Shown one piece after another: positions 14,363-24,690 of a stretch of DNA of 64,000 nt (positions are counted from its first letter, which is position 1; every line of letters begins with the position of its first letter). The position numbers and the translations under genes are program-made. This stretch comes from a virus (taxonomy: Duplodnaviria; Caudoviricetes): the IMG/VR virus record IMGVR_UViG_3300024346_000006. One strand, 5' to 3'. The notes under the pieces were generated by a model. It was not told the DNA's origin. It worked only from the letters and a program-made list of their open reading frames with translations, and searched no databases.

Positions 14363-14425
14363 GTAAAAAAAAGATCAAAAAAAAGTCCTTGAAAAACAAG
14401 GACTTATAATTTTTTTAAAAAAATG

Positions 14426-14761
14426 TTAAATATTTACACTAACACCACACCCACAAGAACTCTTTGCTTGTGGATTGTCTACTATTAACATACTACCAGC
14501 GAGACTTTCTTGATAGTCAATGGTACTACCTAATACATAGATTAAACTATGACTATCTACTACAAATACTTTACCATCTGATAATTCTATAATTTCATCG
14601 GAGTCTTTTATAGGTTCTTCACTTCCAAGTTTCCAAAAGTACTCAAAACCAGCACACCCACCACCTTGCAATCCAAACATTATGTAAGTTTCGTTGTTTT
14701 TATTTAAAATATTCAGTAGGTGTGTTTTGGCGTTATTGGTTATCGATAAGACTGTAGGCAT
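14426..14761 (-). CDS. iscA: IscA/HesB-family Fe-S cluster assembly A-type carrier
   Basis: GGGCAGFEY and C-terminal SSCGCGVS motifs; GSTIDYQESLAGS. Confidence 0.9.
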   Translation of the reverse strand: MPTVLSITNNAKTHLLNILNKNNETYIMFGLQGGGCAGFEYFWKLGSEEPIKDSDEIIELSDGKVFVVDSHSLIYVLGSTIDYQESLAGSMLIVDNPQAKSSCGCGVSVNI

Positions 14762-14805: not shown

Positions 14806-15048
14806 TTATTTATGTTTATTTTTATGTGAATTCGATTTTAACTTGGCCTTTAATTTGTCCATTTCACTACTGGTGTTCTCTTTTTTGTCCCTCTTTTCCA
14901 CTTCGACAACTTGTTCCCGCCGTAAGGAATGAATATAGTCTGTCTCAGCGAGTCCTTTTCTAAGTTCCGCAGCTCTACGTTTAATATCTCCCGTTCTTTC
15001 TTGGAGTCTATATGCTGGTTCATTTTGTTGTTGCTCTAAATATTCCAT
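14806..15048 (-). CDS. Hypothetical charged coiled-coil protein
   Basis: Probable start MEYLEQ; overlaps the end of the cyclase gene. Confidence 0.4.
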   Translation of the reverse strand: MEYLEQQQNEPAYRLQERTGDIKRRAAELRKGLAETDYIHSLRREQVVEVEKRDKKENTSSEMDKLKAKLKSNSHKNKHK

Positions 15049-17062
15049 CCCAATTTTCTGGGAGATCTTGCGTTGACATGTAATCACAACGTTCCATCCA
15101 CATATCGTAATATCCATCCATTTTACCATCAAAGTGTCCTTTCAGTAACTCACACAGTTCTATGGCCTTGTCGAACTGTTTCTTTCTATAAAACTTTAAC
15201 ATATTTCTATGTACTAATTTATACTTTGACCAATCGGCCTTTTCCTCATCTAATACCGTGTATATTGGCAACCCGATACTTTTTCCCTTTACCGCAAGGT
15301 CGTCTAGTTTTAAATAAAAGAAATCACCTTTAGTTCTTCTATATGTTTCTGGGCCGATAATCAATAATACACCATATGCCTTACATTGTCCTTCTAAACG
15401 TGCCGTAGTAGACACCGAATCTCCAAGGACATCATAACTATATCTTTTAGACGAACCCATCTCTCCAATATAACCAACACCAGTATTAATACCAGCACCC
15501 ATACCAACTGGTGGTCTTCCATCGGCAACAAGTCTATCGTTAAACTTCTCAACCGCCTTTAACATCTCCAATCCTGTTCTTACAGATGTATGTGCATGTG
15601 ATTCGTCATCAATTGGTGCGTTGTGAATATGCATAGATGCATCACCAATATACTTAATTATCATTCCGTTATTTTTTAGTACTGGTTCTGTAATAGCATC
15701 CATATATCCGTTCATTATCTCAGTCAGTCCCTGCACATCATCACCAAAAGATTCTCCTAACGGAGTGAATCCTCTCAAATCAGAAAAACAGATACTGATA
15801 TCTCTTTTAGTACCTTTCTTTACAAGGTCTGGATTTTCTTGTAATATTTTAACCACTGCTGGCGAAGCATATCCCTCAAACTGTTTCTTAATAGCCTGTT
15901 TCTGTAAGAACTCATCTAAAAATTTTACAACATATCTACTAAGTCCAACCAATAGTAATATTGCAGAAATGGTTGCACCATCAATGAGTAGATTCTCTGT
16001 TCTAAATGCATATATTGATCCACCAACAAATCCTACTATTGATACAACATAAAATCCCAATCCTAGATATGTCCACTTTGATAATAATATAATAAGAAGT
16101 CCTGCAACCACTAATGCAGTAATTTCTCCCCACACCTTTGCGTCTGGATGTCTTATTATATTAGATTCGTTGAATACGGTTCCTAACATCGCCGCCTGTA
16201 TTTCGTGTGGCCATACTCCACCTTTTGCGGTAGAAATTGGTTGTGTGACTCCAGATGCACTAACTCCAACAAATACAACTGCACCGTCAAAACTATCTGG
16301 TAAATCCATAATACTTGCACTTCTATATTTCTGCGACCAATCAATCCAAACTTCTCCCAATTCATTTGTCTGAATGGGCCCATATTGTGGTATTCTAAGT
16401 TTATCTACCCCCAATGGTGATAACTTAATTTGGAATGATTTGTCACCAGCAAGTACTCTCAATACTTCCATTGTCAAACTAGGGTATAAGTCACCACCAG
16501 ATTCAAAAACTAATGGGGCCCTTCTTGTAACACCATCAATTTCTGGATAAGTATCGGTTATCCCTGAACCAAGTGCATAAGTTTCAAGTAATTTAATATT
16601 AGATGTGATGCCAGATACACTTGGAATGAGATGCATAAACTCAGGATTAATAATTCCAGCGCCAGGGTTAATCGGTTCATTTTTATTCTCCTCTGATCCT
16701 ATAATACTCAGAATGACTGGATATTCCATCATTACTCTTGATAGAACTTCATCCTTTTCAAATCTATCACTTTCACTCATAAGTACATTAAATACAACTA
16801 ATCCTGCACCTCTATCGTACAAATCTTTAATTATATCTGCGTATATGTTTCGTGGAAACGGCCATTGTCCATATTGATTGATAGTTGCATCATCAATATT
16901 AACCGCATAGATATTGTTTTCTTGGGTTGGTTGATTTACTATAAGACTATCGAAATATCTAAGTCTTAAACTTTCTAATAAATTTGGATTGGTATAGTAC
17001 CCATAAGTACACAAAAGAAGTATGATAATACTCCATATTGGGGATAACAAAAACTTTCTCAT
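15020..17062 (-). CDS. CHASE2-domain membrane class III adenylate cyclase
   Basis: N-terminal TM; CHASE2 motifs (VNIDD..I..YGQWPFPR, DGVTRRAPL, HEIQA); three TMs; catalytic FSDLRGFT, IKYIGDA, GINTG, YDVLGDSVSTTARLE. Confidence 0.9.
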   Translation of the reverse strand: MRKFLLSPIWSIIILLLCTYGYYTNPNLLESLRLRYFDSLIVNQPTQENNIYAVNIDDATINQYGQWPFPRNIYADIIKDLYDRGAGLVVFNVLMSESDRFEKDEVLSRVMMEYPVILSIIGSEENKNEPINPGAGIINPEFMHLIPSVSGITSNIKLLETYALGSGITDTYPEIDGVTRRAPLVFESGGDLYPSLTMEVLRVLAGDKSFQIKLSPLGVDKLRIPQYGPIQTNELGEVWIDWSQKYRSASIMDLPDSFDGAVVFVGVSASGVTQPISTAKGGVWPHEIQAAMLGTVFNESNIIRHPDAKVWGEITALVVAGLLIILLSKWTYLGLGFYVVSIVGFVGGSIYAFRTENLLIDGATISAILLLVGLSRYVVKFLDEFLQKQAIKKQFEGYASPAVVKILQENPDLVKKGTKRDISICFSDLRGFTPLGESFGDDVQGLTEIMNGYMDAITEPVLKNNGMIIKYIGDASMHIHNAPIDDESHAHTSVRTGLEMLKAVEKFNDRLVADGRPPVGMGAGINTGVGYIGEMGSSKRYSYDVLGDSVSTTARLEGQCKAYGVLLIIGPETYRRTKGDFFYLKLDDLAVKGKSIGLPIYTVLDEEKADWSKYKLVHRNMLKFYRKKQFDKAIELCELLKGHFDGKMDGYYDMWMERCDYMSTQDLPENWDGIFRATTK

Positions 17063-17069
17063 TTTTACC

Positions 17070-17753
17070 TCAATTGTTTCCGTCTACAGTTACCGAGCAT
17101 CCTGCCGAATTTGTACAATATCCTGTAATACTATAAGATCCAGTAGATGAATTTACATTTTGACTCAAGTTTAATGTATATGCACCACCAGAATTAGTTA
17201 AATCTATTGCAGCTGTTGCACTATGACTACCTCTTTGGTTTACATCGACTGTATGTCCATCACCTGTAAGTACAATATCTGCCCATTTCTGTCCGTCATT
17301 CCCTCTTTGATACAGGTCTACTGTGTTACTGTCGCCCTGTATCTCTACAAAACCATCATGTCCAGCCTTACCCATTTGTATATGTTCTACTGTATTACTA
17401 TCGCCATTTACTATATTTGCTAAGTGGTGTGCTGCGCCGCCTCCACCACCTCTATTGGTATCTGTTTGATAACTTCCAACTGTATTTCCATCACCTGTTA
17501 CAGTCCAATATGCCTCATGGCCGCCCGTTTCATCACCATCATATGTATTATCATCATGAATACCTTGACGTATAGTAATATCGTTATTTGGGCCTGTAGA
17601 ATTTAGATTGATATAATTGTTTTCACTGCGTTGTTGAATCTCCAAAGTAAGATTGTCACCACTTTGAGTAATGTAGATTTCATTACTACTGACTTTGGAC
17701 GATATCAATAGTGTTGCTACCAACACCAAGGCGGTAATCGTATATTGCCTCAT
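17070..17753 (-). CDS. Curlin-repeat (CsgA/CsgB-like) secreted protein 1
   Basis: Signal peptide, then NEIYITQSGDN and repeated x-G-D-x-N-T-V-x-x-x-Q units. Confidence 0.75.
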   Translation of the reverse strand: MRQYTITALVLVATLLISSKVSSNEIYITQSGDNLTLEIQQRSENNYINLNSTGPNNDITIRQGIHDDNTYDGDETGGHEAYWTVTGDGNTVGSYQTDTNRGGGGGAAHHLANIVNGDSNTVEHIQMGKAGHDGFVEIQGDSNTVDLYQRGNDGQKWADIVLTGDGHTVDVNQRGSHSATAAIDLTNSGGAYTLNLSQNVNSSTGSYSITGYCTNSAGCSVTVDGNN

Positions 17754-18810
17754 CTCCCTGCTCCATGTTTATTGTATAACCATTTTCTTGGTGCAATTTT
17801 AAATCTAATCTTTGAGTAACACCAGCATCTTCTCTTAGAATTCTCCACATAGGATTGATATCTTCAATAGTAATTCTTGTTGCTTCGTCATATCCATACA
17901 CCCTTTGTGCAAAAAATTCTTCATTCTGTGTATCTAACTCATCTCTAAACATCTCTGCAAGAGACAAGTTTAACTGATCCAACATATCATGTAATAGTTC
18001 TTGTAAATAATAATCTGAATCATGCAATTCTGTTACCCATATATTTTTTACATCTTCAGTTAATGCATCCTGATCCAAATCATCAAATTCTAGAAAGTCT
18101 ATGTCCAGAAAATCAAACATTTTTCTGGCCTTTCTCATAATTTCTTTTTCTTCTTCTTCGTATGGCGTCTTTTTTCTTAACATCAATAAATTATTAATAT
18201 CGCCTTCAGATATATCTAATAGAAGTGGTGGTAATGGTTTCGACCACATACTCTTTACAATAGTAGATTGAAACGCTTGAGTCATTATAACAAACCCTGT
18301 ATCAGTTTCAACTAAGATTTCACCTGTAACACACATACCACTTATATCACAACTTGGTAGTAGTGTAATCATACTACCACCAATTTCATCAACAACCATA
18401 ATAAAATCTGTACCCCTCACACTAATTTTTGCGCTAGGGGTTCTGATATTCACTCTCTGTCTACTATTTGTGGCAATTTTACCACTCGCATAACGAATAG
18501 TACCTAAAGTCGCCCTCAATCCAAGAGAACCAGTTCCACTATTAGGGTCATAAACAAAGTCATCTATTAATAATCTGGTGTGTTCTGTCAAGTCTACTCT
18601 AGTATCATCAATGAAATCTATTCGCATCTTACCACGTTCAGTGACTGCGACATCCATAGACTCAACACTAACACCATAATTACCAGTAATAACATTAGTA
18701 TCTCTTTCTAACACTCCACTTCCACTCAGGTCGGTTATAGTCCCAGCTGCACCATAGAGGTTGTGTGGAAAACATAACACTAAGAGTACTAAGAAGATGT
18801 ACTTAAGCAT
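17686..18810 (-). CDS. Secreted FecR-domain protein
   Basis: Signal peptide; FecR-like segment (G.MRIDFIDDTRVDLTEHTRLLIDDFVYDP...G.IRYASGKIA...IRTPSAKISVRGTDF); curlin-like C-terminus. Confidence 0.8.
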   Translation of the reverse strand: MLKYIFLVLLVLCFPHNLYGAAGTITDLSGSGVLERDTNVITGNYGVSVESMDVAVTERGKMRIDFIDDTRVDLTEHTRLLIDDFVYDPNSGTGSLGLRATLGTIRYASGKIATNSRQRVNIRTPSAKISVRGTDFIMVVDEIGGSMITLLPSCDISGMCVTGEILVETDTGFVIMTQAFQSTIVKSMWSKPLPPLLLDISEGDINNLLMLRKKTPYEEEEKEIMRKARKMFDFLDIDFLEFDDLDQDALTEDVKNIWVTELHDSDYYLQELLHDMLDQLNLSLAEMFRDELDTQNEEFFAQRVYGYDEATRITIEDINPMWRILREDAGVTQRLDLKLHQENGYTINMEQGDEAIYDYRLGVGSNTIDIVQSQ

Positions 18811-19544
18811 CAGTCTTGTTGTGTTATATTAACGTCTGCACCATCACCAGAAAAAGTTGCGTCAATTAAATTATCATAGATTCCTGACTGTGATATTTTA
18901 TACATACCACCGCCACCAGTAATGTTTAGTGTGATACTGTGTCCGTTAATATCTCCGTTTCCAGTTTGATCTATATCAATGTAGTTTCCTGGCGCACTTG
19001 TAGAAAGTCCTGTAGTTCCATGCGTAAGTGTACCAGATGCAAGACTTGAAGAAGAATCAACTGTAACAGTGATATCTGCATTTGTTCCGTCTTGTATCAA
19101 ATCGATAACATTACCATCTCCAGTAACTGTGAAATCAGCGACTAAATTTTCTGCGTCATTATTCTCACCAATATACATTTGGAATTGATTATTATCACCA
19201 GTAGTAGTAATATCTAATGTAACTGTTTCGCAGTTAACACCCGAAGTAGTATCACAAGTTAAATCTACTGTATTTGTATCTCCAGTAAACACCCAAGTTC
19301 CTGTATAAGTATTACCCTTAATGATAGCATCAATTTCATTGAAGTTACCAGTTTGGGTGATACTAAAAGTCATAGTATCTCCTGTCAAGGTCATATCAGT
19401 AGTAGAATCGCCAATTTTATTATCTTGTCCATCTTGTACAATATCTAAGTCCAGATTATCGCCAGATTGTGTAATATAGATCTCATTAGCGTATGCTGGA
19501 ATACCGTACAAAAGTGCAAAAATTATTAGTATTTTTTTAAACAT
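18810..19544 (-). CDS. Curlin-repeat (CsgA/CsgB-like) secreted protein 2
   Basis: Signal peptide, NEIYITQSGDNL, repeated Q/T-G-D/N-x-N-x-I/V-D-L units. Confidence 0.75.
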   Translation of the reverse strand: MFKKILIIFALLYGIPAYANEIYITQSGDNLDLDIVQDGQDNKIGDSTTDMTLTGDTMTFSITQTGNFNEIDAIIKGNTYTGTWVFTGDTNTVDLTCDTTSGVNCETVTLDITTTGDNNQFQMYIGENNDAENLVADFTVTGDGNVIDLIQDGTNADITVTVDSSSSLASGTLTHGTTGLSTSAPGNYIDIDQTGNGDINGHSITLNITGGGGMYKISQSGIYDNLIDATFSGDGADVNITQQD

Positions 19545-19545
19545 A

Positions 19546-20364
19546 TTATTCCTCTTGTTTTAGTTCCATTTTCCAGAGTTGTTTTTTTACTCCACCATAA
19601 ACTAACTCGATCACACCCTGTTCAATTGCCGCTCTGACAGCATAATTAACGGGTTCATTTGATGAAAAGCCGGTTTCAGTTTCTACGAGTTTTGTACCGA
19701 GGTCTAAAAATTTAAATACATCTGCACCACTTCTATAACTTGCAATTGTTTTATCCGTAGCAATACTCATTAACACCTTACCTGTACCAACACTTACTAG
19801 TCGCATAACAACAGTAACAGTATCTATTCTGTATTCTGTTTGTATGCCAACACCCAAGTATCTAGCACCGGCGCCGCCTGTCGCCGTATTTGAATCATAA
19901 CCAACCACTCCCCCTTCAAGGATAAGTCCTGCAAAAATCATAGGACTTAATGGTTCTGGGCCTCCTGGCTTGCTTTTATCATAAACATCCCTTGTCTGTC
20001 TAATCAATTGTCTTTCTTTTATTAAATTATCCATACCAACACGTTCTACAACATCAAACCATGTTCCATTACCCACATCTTGAAGTGCCTTTATAACCCA
20101 AACTTCTGATCCTTGAGTTACTGCAGAACTTAAACTTGCAATATTCGTTGCCGACTTTCTTTGTCCAGTCTTATCCAAAAACTGATAAACAGCGATTGTA
20201 ATTTTTGGGCCATCAATTGGTGGCACGGCCGCAAGACGTTCCTTAATTGGACTCTCTTGCAATTCTGGTGAAATATTAACATCCCGTAAAGTTTGAAGAC
20301 TCTTGTTGGTTGCACACCCAGATAACACTAAAAGAGAGAGTATTACAGGTATTAACTTTCTCAA
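19546..20364 (-). CDS. csgG: Curli secretion channel lipoprotein CsgG
   Basis: Lipobox LSGC; IAVYQFLDKTGQRK, VTQG, WFDVVER.GMDNL.KERQ, EGGVVGYDSN, GGAGARYLG. Confidence 0.92.
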   Translation of the reverse strand: MRKLIPVILSLLVLSGCATNKSLQTLRDVNISPELQESPIKERLAAVPPIDGPKITIAVYQFLDKTGQRKSATNIASLSSAVTQGSEVWVIKALQDVGNGTWFDVVERVGMDNLIKERQLIRQTRDVYDKSKPGGPEPLSPMIFAGLILEGGVVGYDSNTATGGAGARYLGVGIQTEYRIDTVTVVMRLVSVGTGKVLMSIATDKTIASYRSGADVFKFLDLGTKLVETETGFSSNEPVNYAVRAAIEQGVIELVYGGVKKQLWKMELKQEE

Positions 20365-20822
20365 AAACCAAACTCCCCTGTTGGAATTGTTATTTCAGTA
20401 ATACTTCCATCTTCTTCAGTAACGCTTAATGTTATAGTGCCAGCAATCGGGTCTTTTATCCAAGTTATAGTAGAACCCTCAATAGTAGCAGTTCCAGTAT
20501 TAGAACATATATCTCCACAATCTGCAAACATTGCATCAACCATTTGTTTAGATAGTGTTGCATAAATTCTAGATTCGATGTTTCTTAAAAATTTGGCGAG
20601 AGTTGTATTTTCAAGTTCTCTTTCAATTCTTGCGGCCTCTGCTTCTGCTGATTTTCTCAAGTCTTCTTTTCTGTTATGTTGTAACTGTTCAACACTCAAA
20701 ACATGAGTGGAGTAACCATTTCCATAATGAAAGGCCGGATTCTTAAATCCCCATGTCAGTTCAGAAGCATATAGATTACTGCTCATCAATATTAAACTTA
20801 CAACTATCAGTATTCTGTTCAT
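20361..20822 (-). CDS. csgF: Curli assembly protein CsgF-like
   Basis: Signal peptide, then SELTWGFKNPAF (CsgF N-terminal motif); directly upstream of csgG. Confidence 0.75.
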   Translation of the reverse strand: MNRILIVVSLILMSSNLYASELTWGFKNPAFHYGNGYSTHVLSVEQLQHNRKEDLRKSAEAEAARIERELENTTLAKFLRNIESRIYATLSKQMVDAMFADCGDICSNTGTATIEGSTITWIKDPIAGTITLSVTEEDGSITEITIPTGEFGF

Positions 20823-20832
20823 GAGTTTTCCT

Positions 20833-21129
20833 CTAAGAATTTTCTTTTCGTTTTTTTATAATTTTTTCTACTTCTTCGTCAGTTGGGATAACAACTCCCT
20901 TCTGTTGTAAGATCATATTTAACTTTGTATTTAATCGAATTAAATCATTGTCTAGCATTCTAACCCTGTCGATCAATGCAATGAGAGTCATATGCGACTC
21001 CTCAATGACAGGATCTACCTCTTCTGTCACCCAATACCATATATAGTATATAAAATATCCTAACCCAAATGCGGCTATGATAGGAAATCCATATTGTCCT
21101 ATTAATGTTCCTAATTCAATACTGTCCAT
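20833..21129 (-). CDS. Small single-TM membrane protein (holin-like), GFPI paralogue 2
   Basis: QYGFPIIAAFGLGYFIYYIW, then coiled coil IDRVRMLDNDLIRL. Confidence 0.6.
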   Translation of the reverse strand: MDSIELGTLIGQYGFPIIAAFGLGYFIYYIWYWVTEEVDPVIEESHMTLIALIDRVRMLDNDLIRLNTKLNMILQQKGVVIPTDEEVEKIIKKRKENS

Positions 21130-21130
21130 T

Positions 21131-21331
21131 TTAGTCTCTATTTACACCTTCATCACCAGAGATGTGACATAACCAACCATTTTCATTTACACGAAAAACA
21201 TCACCAGGCTTATAAAGGTAATTCTTTTTTTTATTTCCATCTGCTTCAAGCCCCATAACTTCACCTTCGTATTCACCACGAATTTTAAAGTTCTTTCCAG
21301 CCTGATCGATGATATAATCTAACCACATCAT
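21131..21331 (-). CDS. Small hypothetical protein
   Basis: 66 aa, PGDVFRVNENGWL. Confidence 0.55.
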   Translation of the reverse strand: MMWLDYIIDQAGKNFKIRGEYEGEVMGLEADGNKKKNYLYKPGDVFRVNENGWLCHISGDEGVNRD

Positions 21332-21513
21332 GACGCAATATCCTCCGATACACTTCCAATTTTTTCAAAATAACCATTAGGGCCAACTTGATATAAATCG
21401 CCTATCTGTATCTTTACATCATCAATGACAAAAAATTTATCATCTGGGTTTTTTGCAGACGTAATTCTAAATCCATTTGCAAATTTCGTTAATAGTAAGT
21501 TTTTCCAAAGCAT
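21328..21513 (-). CDS. Small hypothetical protein, paralogue of 21131-21331
   Basis: 61 aa, IGDLYQVGPNGYF. Confidence 0.55.
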   Translation of the reverse strand: MLWKNLLLTKFANGFRITSAKNPDDKFFVIDDVKIQIGDLYQVGPNGYFEKIGSVSEDIAS

Positions 21514-21800
21514 TAATCTTTCCTCGCATCTGTTTGTCCATCCGCTCTTGCAATTCTATTGAGGTCTGCAGGCAGTAATGGAATGTTAAATGATCTACAC
21601 ATTAGTATATCAATTCGCAAGAGTTCATTATTCATGGTCTTAACTCTATTATCTAAAGATTGCACAAATCCTCTCTGTGTTTTGATATTATCTAAAACAC
21701 CAGCCAGAATGAATTTTAATGTTAGGAAAACAAAAAAGCCGCCTGCAAGTGCAGAAGCGATGGGAAATCCAACGTCTGCTACTAACGATAAAAAGTCCAT
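21513..21800 (-). CDS. Small single-TM membrane protein (holin-like), GFPI paralogue 1
   Basis: DVGFPIASALAGGFFVFLTLKFI, then LDNRVKTMNNELLRI. Confidence 0.6.
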   Translation of the reverse strand: MDFLSLVADVGFPIASALAGGFFVFLTLKFILAGVLDNIKTQRGFVQSLDNRVKTMNNELLRIDILMCRSFNIPLLPADLNRIARADGQTDARKD

Positions 21801-21847
21801 ATAAAAATCCTCTCAACCCTATTTATGATTTTGAGTCATTCTAGGCC

Positions 21848-21874
21848 AAAAAAAAGACAGTATAATACTGTCTT
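21848..21874 (-). terminator. Probable terminator separating upstream genes from the curli-type operon
   Basis: Hairpin aagacagta-taa-tactgtctt with an A-run (U-tract on minus); late-like CATAAATA at 21820-21827 lies downstream. Confidence 0.55.
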
Positions 21875-22071: not shown

Positions 22072-22464
22072 TCATGTCCTAGTAATTAATTCAACAAGAT
22101 TTAAAGCAACAGAAGTGCCAGATATAGAACTTCCTATCATGATCGCTCTGTCACCCCATTGCATTCCTACTACAACCCATCCTATACTTGCAATCACATA
22201 TAGAATTTGTCCTATCATTTCAAAACCAGAGCTCAATGAAAAAATACCCAAAACTGCAAAGATAGTAGACATCCATTTAATATACCAGTCAAATGTACCG
22301 ACTGGTGTTGTTGGAGTAAGGTCGTCTACTTCACTTTGTAGTTGGGCAAGTTCTTCTTTAAGTCGTTTGCGCTCTTGAGAAAGTTCCATGGCGATTTTTC
22401 CTGCCTTGGACATTTGACTATTTTCAAACTTTTGCTTAATTTTTGGGTCTAAATCATCATCCAT
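22072..22464 (-). CDS. Coiled-coil plus multi-TM membrane protein
   Basis: N-terminal heptads, three hydrophobic C-terminal segments. Confidence 0.6.
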   Translation of the reverse strand: MDDDLDPKIKQKFENSQMSKAGKIAMELSQERKRLKEELAQLQSEVDDLTPTTPVGTFDWYIKWMSTIFAVLGIFSLSSGFEMIGQILYVIASIGWVVVGMQWGDRAIMIGSSISGTSVALNLVELITRT

Positions 22465-22474
22465 AAAAAATATT

Positions 22475-22750
22475 TCACTTTTCTAGTTTATCGATTCTTT
22501 TTTCTAACTCATCAATCTTACCAGTCATTTTAGGATATCTTTTTCGCCATGCATCTGGTGGTTCTTGCAACCAAACAATACCCCATCTCTCTGCAAGATA
22601 TGCCATAAAAGTATCAAACTTGGCGTATCCCCATAGTCCCATGCGAGTATCTTTAAACCACATTAAAAATGCGGCACCAAAAAGACTTCCTGCAATACCT
22701 GTATAAATCCACAACCTATCGGTTGCCATCCTCTCTATCATTTCCCACAT
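22475..22750 (-). CDS. Hypothetical membrane protein
   Basis: One TM plus a C-terminal short coil. Confidence 0.6.
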   Translation of the reverse strand: MWEMIERMATDRLWIYTGIAGSLFGAAFLMWFKDTRMGLWGYAKFDTFMAYLAERWGIVWLQEPPDAWRKRYPKMTGKIDELEKRIDKLEK

Positions 22751-22769
22751 TGTTATTTTCCAGTATCCT

Positions 22770-23570
22770 TCAATTTTTATCTCCTATGGGTTCATTGAAT
22801 CCTTCCGTATATCTCATATAATATTTCATACTATGGTCATAAGCACCATCAAAGAGTTGTCTTTTCTTTAGTGCGATCCATCGCCCTCTCATCTGATCTT
22901 TAAATCTCTGCCATGGTGTCAATTTACGAACATTGCCATAAAAATTAATGTAACGCAACTCACCATGATGTTTATAAGTAAAGATTGAAGGCGGCACACT
23001 TGGTACTATGTCATTGTTGTTTACAAATCTAACATGATTTGCAATATTAGATTTACAGTATTCACGATTTCCAACTCTTGGAGAACCAAAAGTACATAAA
23101 CATGTTACTGACGGCAACCTTCCGGCAACGATTGTCGCCATAGCACCACCCAATGAATGTCCAGTCACAAACAATTTTCTATTTTTTTGAAGTGTCTGAT
23201 TAAACCTCACATCTAAAACTTGTTTTTTTACTAATTCCCATAATTTGGAAACTTCTGTTTCAAATCCTAAATGAACTCTTCCTGCAAGAAGAGATTTTTT
23301 CGGCCATGCCTTAAGGTCTGCCTTGACATCATTAAACTGTTCTGGTTGGGTTCCTCTAAATGCAACAATGACATTATCTTCGTTCCAAACTACATATGCT
23401 TGGGCGCCTGAATTATCATAGTATCTTACATGCGGATATCCCATTTTATAGAACTTTGGGTCTGCTTCGTTTTTTGTTAAATATGCATAACTTGACGCTT
23501 TTGCCAAGTCATGCACAGTTACTGCGTACTCATACATTTTTTGCCTCGTATACTCTGTTATGTGTATCAT
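22770..23570 (-). CDS. Class 3 lipase (alpha/beta hydrolase)
   Basis: VIVAFRGT, VHLGF, FVTGHSLGGAMA nucleophile elbow, TFGSPRVGN, NDIVPSVP, C-terminal DH. Confidence 0.88.
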   Translation of the reverse strand: MIHITEYTRQKMYEYAVTVHDLAKASSYAYLTKNEADPKFYKMGYPHVRYYDNSGAQAYVVWNEDNVIVAFRGTQPEQFNDVKADLKAWPKKSLLAGRVHLGFETEVSKLWELVKKQVLDVRFNQTLQKNRKLFVTGHSLGGAMATIVAGRLPSVTCLCTFGSPRVGNREYCKSNIANHVRFVNNNDIVPSVPPSIFTYKHHGELRYINFYGNVRKLTPWQRFKDQMRGRWIALKKRQLFDGAYDHSMKYYMRYTEGFNEPIGDKN

Positions 23571-24690
23571 TGCACAAAATAAAAGTTGTACATTTACTTA
23601 GTCTTTTTAATTTGTCTGCACCAACATAAGTACATGTTGAACGCAATCCACCAAGGATATCTTGAACAGTAGATGCAACAGTACCTCTATATGGAACGAG
23701 TACTTCTCTACCTTCACTACTTCTATATTCTTTTAGTCCACCAAAATGTTTATCATTTGCAGCGACTGAACTCATACCATAGAACCGCACAAACTGTTTT
23801 TCTTCAATCTTATGTGTAAGATTATCTAAATGATGACCAAGTTCATACGTTAGTTCATTTGTTTTATAGAACTTTGTAATCACTTCACCACCACCTTCAT
23901 CGTGTCCGGCAAGCATCCCTCCCAACATAACAAAATCGGCTCCTCCAGCGAATGCCTTAGCAACATCGCCAGGAGTAGAGCAACCGCCGTCAGCAATAAT
24001 GTGTCCACCAAGGCCATGAGCTGCGTCAGCACACTCGATGACCGCAGAGAGTTGAGGATAACCCACCCCAGTCTGAAGGCGAGTGGTGCAAACACTGCCA
24101 GGACCAATGCCCACTTTGACAATATCAGCTCCATTTAGAATTAACTCCTGTGTTTGATCTGCAGTTACAACATTCCCTGCAATAATTACAATATTTGGAT
24201 AGTTTTGTCTGAAAGATTTTACAAACTCTACAAATCTTTCTGTGTATCCATTTGCGACATCAATACAAACATATTTCAGAAGAGAATCAACCTGTTCATA
24301 AACCATTCGAAATTTATTTTCATCTGCCTGTGCAATTCCAATAGACATCGCAACATGTTCAGTTCTTTCTGGAATATCACTATCAAAGTAAGTAACAAGT
24401 TCACCGACAGTATATGTCTTAACGAGGCATGTAAAAAGTCCACCTTCTGCAAGTTTATCTGCCATTTGAAAGGTGGCAACACTATCCATATTAGCAGCCA
24501 TAATAGGGATTCCTTTATAATGGGGATTACTATCTGGGCGCAAAACTTCCATACTCATTTCTTCTGGACGATAATTACGGAACCGATAACTACGTTCTAG
24601 ACAAACTTCTTTTCTAGAAGTTAATGTACTTCTCTTAGGACGAATTAGAACATCATTGTAATCTAGTTTTACTTCACTATCGATTCTCAT
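23530..24690 (-). CDS. guaC: GMP reductase
   Basis: KLDYNDVLIRPKRSTL.SR, AANMD, CIDVANGY, VKVGIGPGSVCTTR, SEG, GGLRSTCTYVGA. Confidence 0.92.
   Translation of the reverse strand: MRIDSEVKLDYNDVLIRPKRSTLTSRKEVCLERSYRFRNYRPEEMSMEVLRPDSNPHYKGIPIMAANMDSVATFQMADKLAEGGLFTCLVKTYTVGELVTYFDSDIPERTEHVAMSIGIAQADENKFRMVYEQVDSLLKYVCIDVANGYTERFVEFVKSFRQNYPNIVIIAGNVVTADQTQELILNGADIVKVGIGPGSVCTTRLQTGVGYPQLSAVIECADAAHGLGGHIIADGGCSTPGDVAKAFAGGADFVMLGGMLAGHDEGGGEVITKFYKTNELTYELGHHLDNLTHKIEEKQFVRFYGMSSVAANDKHFGGLKEYRSSEGREVLVPYRGTVASTVQDILGGLRSTCTYVGADKLKRLSKCTTFILCNDTHNRVYEAKNV

Follow-up and report, generated by a model that had tools for sequence, protein, structure and literature searches.

The 64,000-nucleotide (nt) window analysed in this study, that is, the whole stretch taken from IMG/VR record IMGVR_UViG_3300024346_000006 (Duplodnaviria; Caudoviricetes), comes from an uncultured marine T4-like phage and contains ten closely packed open reading frames (ORFs), all on the minus strand, between positions 21800 and 15020. 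We consider it rather probable that in these ORFs a marine myophage similar to Melnitz and HTVC008M carries the pelagiphage-type type VIII secretion (curli) module known from the literature, with a FecR/CHASE2 adenylate-cyclase sensor attached to it. By analogy with the curli biology of Escherichia coli, CsgG would be an outer-membrane channel that CsgF caps, and two curlin-like beta-solenoid subunits, here called Cur1 and Cur2, would be secreted through CsgG and assemble on the surface of the infected cell. Gene neighbourhoods suggest that the secretion genes have been joined by a bacterial sensor pair that is otherwise separate from them, consisting of the FecR-domain protein and the CHASE2 cyclase. 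The FecR-domain protein would be the periplasmic partner of the CHASE2 domain, and the cyclase would make cyclic AMP (cAMP) with its cytoplasmic domain. The block would be transcribed from a T4-type late promoter, as a conserved upstream motif suggests.

The original prediction for this window had proposed a tightly coupled minus-strand run of ten genes with these identities, and both the ORF coordinates and the Pfam domain matches agree with it (Table 1). From the 5' end of the operon, successive junctions are a 1-nt overlap, a 4-nt overlap, a 1-nt gap, a 10-nt gap, a 4-nt overlap, a 1-nt gap, a 1-nt overlap, a 68-nt overlap (FecR/Cur2) and a 7-nt gap.

The module is already known, and the window holds one more copy of it. 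Zaragoza-Solas et al. 2020 described the cluster, placed it in a variable host-interaction region and proposed 'sibling capture' (PMC7029224). Wittmers et al. 2022 reported the arrangement 'HK'-CsgF-CsgG-CsgA/B-FecR-(CsgA/B)-adenylate cyclase in podo- and myophages, found the module at all 65 ocean virome stations examined (GOV2.0) and expressed in metatranscriptomes, pointed out that FecR, HK and cyclase are not part of bacterial curli operons, and proposed aggregation, superinfection defence and import as roles (PMC9599517). Their module, from HTVC023P-type podophages and pelagimyophages, shares with the present one the genes, their order and the lack of CsgE, CsgC and CsgD, the second curlin and the cyclase being typical of the myophage version. 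We found no essential difference between the two, the window having two extra small genes between those of the membrane proteins TM_a and TM_b.

The same six-gene core (CsgF-CsgG-Cur1-FecR-Cur2-cyclase) is present in the same order in Melnitz (MZ577097, gp97-106) and HTVC008M (KC465899, 7.5-13.8 kb), and the core proteins of the window are 43-55% identical to those of Melnitz and 35-55% identical to those of HTVC008M. The flanks differ: in the two cultured phages the core lies between ssDNA-binding protein/thyX and tape measure/baseplate hub genes, and in the window it is bordered by lipase, IMPDH-like and HesB/IscA genes. The original prediction had assumed that these two phages carry csgG and csgF only and that the window adds the cargo and the signalling arm; this was wrong, as both carry the whole core, as do all sufficiently long relatives. 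GenBank names the Melnitz genes as curlin repeat (two), FecR, cyclase, CsgG and CsgF. In the text of Buchholz et al. 2022 csgA and csgB are stated to be absent from Melnitz (PMC9004378), which is contradicted by sequence comparison and structural modelling, both of which point to curlin subunits being present.

In total, 138 viral contigs encode a close CsgG, and 80 of these were fetched. The core order is kept in all 80, as far as each contig reaches, and the variation among them consists of a third curlin in many, no detectable Cur2 in a few, and a different placement of the four upstream genes.

The module is abundant in ocean viromes; SAR11 and OM43 cells have no secretion system of this kind and receive one with it. 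If fibres are made, infection could alter aggregation, superinfection and carbon export, a case that is already in print. The points added here are the role of FecR as a likely CHASE2 partner, the lack of support for the 'HK' label, the presence of predicted curlins contrary to the Melnitz paper, a conserved Asn-to-Ser replacement in the cyclase, a Cur1 solenoid model best matched by CsgA, the frequent occurrence of FecR and CHASE2 pairs in bacteria including SAR11 hosts, and a conserved late-type promoter motif.

Secretion channel and curlin-like proteins

CsgG scores 165 bits against a Pfam cut-off of 20.8 bits and has a full-length match to E. coli CsgG 3x2r (8e-49, residues 7-271). The lipobox lies at residues 14-17 and is found in every relative listed. 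CsgF scores 47.7 bits against a cut-off of 25.8 and covers profile positions 4-132 of 132; after its signal peptide it has an N-terminal motif, FKNPAF..GNGYS, which is kept in relatives and resembles the CsgG-inserting peptide of E. coli CsgF. No CsgF chain in the PDB was recovered by phmmer with the phage CsgF as query. All envelope parts carry export signals, namely the lipobox of CsgG and signal peptides on CsgF, both curlins and the FecR-domain protein. Bacterial curli systems (E. coli and alphaproteobacterial csgGF loci) have in common with the phage module a CsgG lipoprotein channel, a CsgF cap and secreted repeat beta-solenoid subunits, whereas the phage module differs from them by having no CsgE, CsgC or CsgD, by a Leu in place of Phe56 of CsgG and by Cys pairs in its curlins.

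In both Cur1 and Cur2 the signal peptide is followed by NEIYITQSGDNL. Cur2 matches the Pfam family Curlin_rpt in two stretches (2.2e-9, 37.6 bits against a cut-off of 20.7), and Cur1 reaches 20.0 bits (6.8e-4), slightly below the same cut-off. The two families are homologous according to hhalign (probability 99.5%, E 7e-23). The AlphaFold2 model of Cur1 is all beta (pLDDT 84.4, pTM 0.80), and in a wide search with VIA-align its top match was CsgA of Pontibacter korlensis (8c50_A; Z 17.4, 194 residues aligned, rmsd 8.9, 23% identity). Compared with the E. coli CsgA fibril 8enq_A the model gave Z 11.7 and 24% identity with all 111 residues of 8enq_A aligned, and the remaining VIA-align matches were generic beta-solenoids of 5-16% identity. 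Foldseek returned no significant match for the same model in the PDB and AFDB Swiss-Prot. Relative to the related phages, the ratio of non-synonymous to synonymous substitution rates (dN/dS) was about 0.09-0.13 for Cur1 and Cur2 and 0.06-0.13 across all six core genes. The CsgA-like model of Cur1, the homology of the two curlins and this purifying selection support the earlier proposal of the curlins as cargo of CsgG and CsgF. Judged from sequence and model, Cur1 and Cur2 appear to be real, constrained, secreted solenoid proteins, which may polymerise.

Several variants of the curlin genes were seen among relatives. A third curlin-like gene lies between FecR and Cur2 in many of them (L009, L010, L012, L021, L031, L040, L043, L044, L059, L062, L066 and L069), and three have no Cur2 match (L065, L070 and L071). 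In IMGVR_UViG_3300025771_000012 (L080:2006-3800) the Cur1 match is split in two, covering ~54% and ~51% of the query, which suggests that the curlin gene is frameshifted or broken there, or else misassembled.

FecR-domain protein, cyclase and small membrane proteins

The FecR-domain protein scores 32.4 bits in Pfam against a cut-off of 24 and consists of a signal peptide-like helix (residues 1-21), a FecR beta domain, a helical linker and a small C-terminal beta domain. The N-terminal domain of its model has a pLDDT of ~90 and matches the anti-sigma / PupR cell-surface signalling domains 4m0n and 6ovk_R with probability 1.0; the C-terminal half of the protein is specific to the phage family. 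A cytoplasmic anti-sigma domain and a membrane anchor are absent ahead of the FecR domain, the helix running directly into the beta domain. This suggests a periplasmic FecR-domain protein and not an iron-citrate regulator. An iron-regulator label is therefore not warranted for the phage protein, which, by its sequence and neighbours, would instead be a partner of CHASE2 sensors.

A profile search of one genome per bacterial species gave 70 FecR loci in addition to the phage-like ones. A CHASE2 gene lies within the fetched flanks at no fewer than 24 of these loci, with a cyclase or PP2C output. On an alphaproteobacterial chromosome (L134) a CHASE2 cyclase adjoins two FecR-domain genes, and in a SAR11 locus from a Pelagibacteraceae single-cell genome (L159) a CHASE2-SpoIIE gene sits two genes upstream of a FecR-domain gene. 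Published cases include the Burkholderia BiofilmReg operon, which encodes a LysM-FecR protein and a CHASE2 kinase (PMC5192318), and Sinorhizobium meliloti, which has the CHASE2 cyclase CyaD1 and in which the FecR-domain protein SMc02177 is among the targets of the cAMP regulator Clr (PMC5498481). Bacterial pairs resemble the phage pair in that the genes of a periplasmic FecR-domain protein and a CHASE2 membrane sensor are neighbours, and they differ in having varied outputs (cyclase, PP2C phosphatase or histidine kinase) and no csgG link in the retrieved loci. Conversely, neither FecR nor a CHASE2 cyclase was found within ~10 kb at the seven closest CsgG loci among 401 alphaproteobacterial genomes. 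As the pair occurs without csgG in bacteria and csgG loci occur without the pair, the phage cassette seems to combine two bacterial modules. A complex prediction for FecR (21-374) and the periplasmic domain of CHASE2 (25-326) scored 0.00, which carries no weight for or against binding.

The SAR11 operon (L159:6458-11431) follows directly after the PBP2 and RodA genes and encodes the CHASE2-SpoIIE protein (PP2C phosphatase), a 455-amino-acid (aa) protein that matches DUF2860 weakly, a FecR-domain protein of 191 aa and an uncharacterised protein of 345 aa; the same layout is seen in L153 and L160-L162.

Pfam places CHASE2 at residues 16-324 of the phage cyclase and the cyclase domain at 416-594. 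Hydrophobic segments at ~5-23 and 329-395 give a predicted topology of one transmembrane segment, a periplasmic CHASE2 domain, three transmembrane segments and a cytoplasmic cyclase domain. Class III cyclases have six canonical catalytic residues, namely two metal-binding Asp, a Lys and an Asp that specify adenine, and an Asn and an Arg that act on the transition state. Five of these are retained here (D428 and D474 for the metal, K470 and D544 for adenine, and R555). The metal, adenine-specifying and Arg residues are conserved in the 48 aligned phage copies, save for HTVC008M at the specificity Asp.

The small membrane proteins TM_a and TM_b probably correspond to the 'HK' of Wittmers et al. 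2022. We found no Pfam match to HisKA or HATPase in either at E <= 0.1, and no His whatsoever is present in 39 of the 50 TM_a homologues and 16 of the 39 TM_b homologues; with neither kinase domains nor a conserved His, the label 'histidine kinase' is unsupported for these proteins. The nearest ESM Atlas clusters to them are unnamed viral proteins. In the window the pair is encoded upstream of the core and on its strand, and in most relatives it lies past the cyclase in the reverse orientation; this variable placement marks it as a linked yet separable unit. The four upstream genes that had been counted as part of the operon are thus present and tightly coupled in the window, but they are no fixed part of it, the pair being elsewhere in most relatives. 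TM_a is the most constrained gene of the block, with zero non-synonymous changes relative to related phages at a synonymous divergence (dS) of about 0.5.

Homologues of the pair also occur on a 22-kb contig from a metagenome-assembled genome (MAG) labelled Rickettsiales (L099:5210-15365). This locus encodes a 1317-aa FecR-domain protein, a TolC-like OEP, an HlyD-like protein and a CHASE2 cyclase, directly followed by TM_a and TM_b homologues with 44% and 54% identity to the phage proteins, and no CsgG was found at it. Apparently the locus is bacterial, and it hints that the membrane pair goes with the sensor arm rather than with curli. On a tentative and, in our view, unlikely extension of the preferred reading, FecR, the CHASE2 cyclase and the membrane pair would form one trans-envelope sensor that relays the state of an outer-membrane secretion channel, or of the surface protein that it exports, into the cytoplasm as cAMP, in the style of FecA-FecR cell-surface signalling. 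Under this equally tentative extension the phages would have joined the sensor to curli genes, and at least one marine alphaproteobacterial locus, the Rickettsiales-labelled one, would join the same set to a TolC/HlyD exporter and the 1317-aa protein.

Fibres, surface coat or pore

Fibre formation on the infected cell and its coupling to cAMP are inferred by analogy, and a number of observations weigh against them. No clumping was seen in Melnitz cultures (Buchholz et al. 2022; PMC9004378). None of the ten ORFs has a Pfam match to CsgE at E <= 0.1, as the original prediction had noted in finding no recognisable csgE. The channel itself departs from that of E. coli, in which we take Tyr51, Asn55 and Phe56 to be the constriction residues. 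At these positions the alignment gives Ala, Ser and Leu in the window; among phage copies of CsgG, Leu stands at the Phe56 position in 82 of 82 and a small residue replaces Tyr51, and the Asn55 position is Asn or Ser in 76 of 82. The changes appear conservative, though not identical to E. coli. Each curlin has a conserved Cys pair and is Asp/Thr-rich instead of Gln/Asn-rich. On the signalling side, the position of the transition-state Asn of the cyclase is Ser551 here and Ser in 47 of the 48 aligned phage copies, so that cyclase activity may be low. In addition, a search of three related phage contigs (70-85% complete) for cNMP-binding proteins, as candidate receivers of cAMP, gave none.

The Cys pairs and the Asp/Thr-rich composition could suit a monomeric coat protein instead of an amyloid. 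The exported solenoid proteins would then form a surface coat or adhesin layer that masks receptors against superinfection. We regard this as unlikely on balance. In its favour, the mature proteins are acidic and Thr-rich with just 4-6 Q-x-G motifs, general beta-solenoid adhesins are among the fold matches of Cur1, and the genes lie in the variable host-interaction region of these phages (PMC7029224). However, the best structural match of Cur1, and the only ones at 23-24% identity, are CsgA fibril subunits, and Cur2 lies above the Curlin_rpt cut-off.

The lack of CsgE, together with the absence of aggregation in Melnitz, also speaks for the proposal of Buchholz et al. 2022 that CsgG and CsgF have taken on a new role as a gated pore of the envelope (pinholin- or secretin-like) and set the time of lysis, with the curlins as accessories and not as exported fibres (PMC9004378). 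A late-type promoter and small membrane proteins that are always close by fit this proposal as well. We nevertheless find it improbable: depolarisation of the inner membrane is beyond CsgG, which is an outer-membrane channel, the two curlins are conserved, have signal peptides and are constrained as much as CsgG, and the absence of csgA and csgB stated in the source paper is not correct. A channel from which the CsgE gate is missing could also import nutrients or cofactors during infection, an idea raised by Zaragoza-Solas et al. 2020 (PMC7029224) and Wittmers et al. 2022 (PMC9599517); we hold this to be very improbable, since it leaves CsgF, two conserved secreted solenoid proteins and the sensor pair unexplained.

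Transcription signals, flanking genes and related contigs

The coordinates of the genes and of the transcription signals can be seen in Table 1. Upstream of the block the original prediction had noted a terminator and a late-like motif, and both hold up on comparison. In 44 of the 60 distinct relatives ATAAATA is found in the 100 nt ahead of the first cassette gene, usually 22-28 nt from its start codon, and this is so both where that gene is TM_a and where it is csgF; by comparison, 2.8% of random 100-nt windows contain it. The motif also directly precedes several structural gene starts in the window. It is not enriched over the whole window (24 found, 28 expected), and only the position before gene starts is informative. 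Its conservation before the cassette supports late transcription as the likely mode. FecR, Cur1 and most of CsgG are covered by an RNA-library contig of a relative with ~90% identity, with DNA carry-over possible; it is a weak sign of transcription and silent on transcript ends, strand and level, and the stretches that have no such cover carry no meaning. At the other end, the first strong downstream hairpin is a probable end of the transcription unit, and as it lies past a small ORF and the HesB/IscA gene, the unit may extend beyond the cyclase.

Table 1. Positions of the cassette genes and transcription signals in the window
Feature	Coordinates	Strand	Remarks
Terminator-like hairpin	21854..21874	-	9 bp stem, T run; closes preceding unit
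CATAAATA, late-promoter-like motif	21820..21827	-	7/8 match to T4 late promoter TATAAATA; ends 20 nt before first ATG
TM_a	21513..21800	-	95-aa membrane protein; C-terminal coiled coil; phrog_18771
Small ORF, 61 aa	21328..21513	-	no function assigned; position differs among relatives
Small ORF, 66 aa	21131..21331	-	no function assigned
TM_b	20833..21129	-	98 aa; TM_a paralogue; phrog_18771
CsgF	20361..20822	-	signal peptide; Pfam CsgF 2.2e-12; phrog_35372
CsgG	19546..20364	-	outer-membrane lipoprotein channel; lipobox LSGC; TTG start; Pfam 1.8e-48
Cur1	18810..19544	-	244 aa; secreted curlin-like beta-solenoid (predicted)
FecR-domain protein	17686..18810	-	374 aa; periplasmic (predicted); Pfam FecR 1.3e-7
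Cur2	17070..17753	-	227 aa; secreted curlin-repeat protein (predicted); start overlaps FecR gene by 68 nt
CHASE2 adenylate cyclase	15020..17062	-	Pfam CHASE2 3.7e-35 and Guanylate_cyc 4.6e-16
Strong terminator-like hairpin	14383..14405	-	first one downstream; after small ORF and HesB/IscA-type gene (14426-14761)

The window also encodes tail-fibre, baseplate and ribonucleotide reductase genes, and its base composition is uniform. Auxiliary-type genes flank the cassette on the minus strand (22072-24690 and 14426-14761) and encode a DUF6552 membrane protein, a class 3 lipase, an IMPDH/GMP-reductase-like protein and a HesB/IscA Fe-S assembly protein. No near-identical cultured phage was recovered when the window's first 25 kb were compared with a phage collection by Megablast. 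The same cassette with the same flanking genes is present on several independent IMG/VR contigs (26-136 kb) at about 90-97% protein identity, and the stretch also occurs in many marine metagenome runs. Because the same flanks recur in independent viral contigs and the composition is uniform, a host-phage chimera at this locus, which had been named as a possible objection, is unlikely.

Contigs from 'bacterial' MAGs that gave the best FecR matches (L086-L091) hold the complete phage cassette, including membrane-pair genes of phage type. Their bins are labelled Rhodobacteraceae, Legionellales, Pirellulales, Polynucleobacter and Flavobacteriaceae, and a full phage cassette in five unrelated lineages most likely reflects mis-binned phage contigs and not a bacterial copy. 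A Luteolibacter MAG (L092, 103.6-kb contig) has a divergent cassette with the cyclase on the opposite strand and three membrane-pair genes. Contigs of 270-320 kb with Cur1 homologues were also considered as bacterial, and this was rejected, as the one examined (L083) has phage-type genes and frameshifts typical of long-read assembly. This ENA contig ('pilon') is 322 kb long, roughly double the usual genome size; FecR and cyclase are each split into two called genes in it, and it is probably a long-read concatemer with frameshift errors.

Finally, two alternative small ORFs on the minus strand (14806-15132 and 14850-15023) overlap the 3' end of the cyclase gene. A 108-aa frame over this end has matches at 33-38% identity in the distant relatives L056, L066 and L089, and in view of these matches it may be a real small gene.

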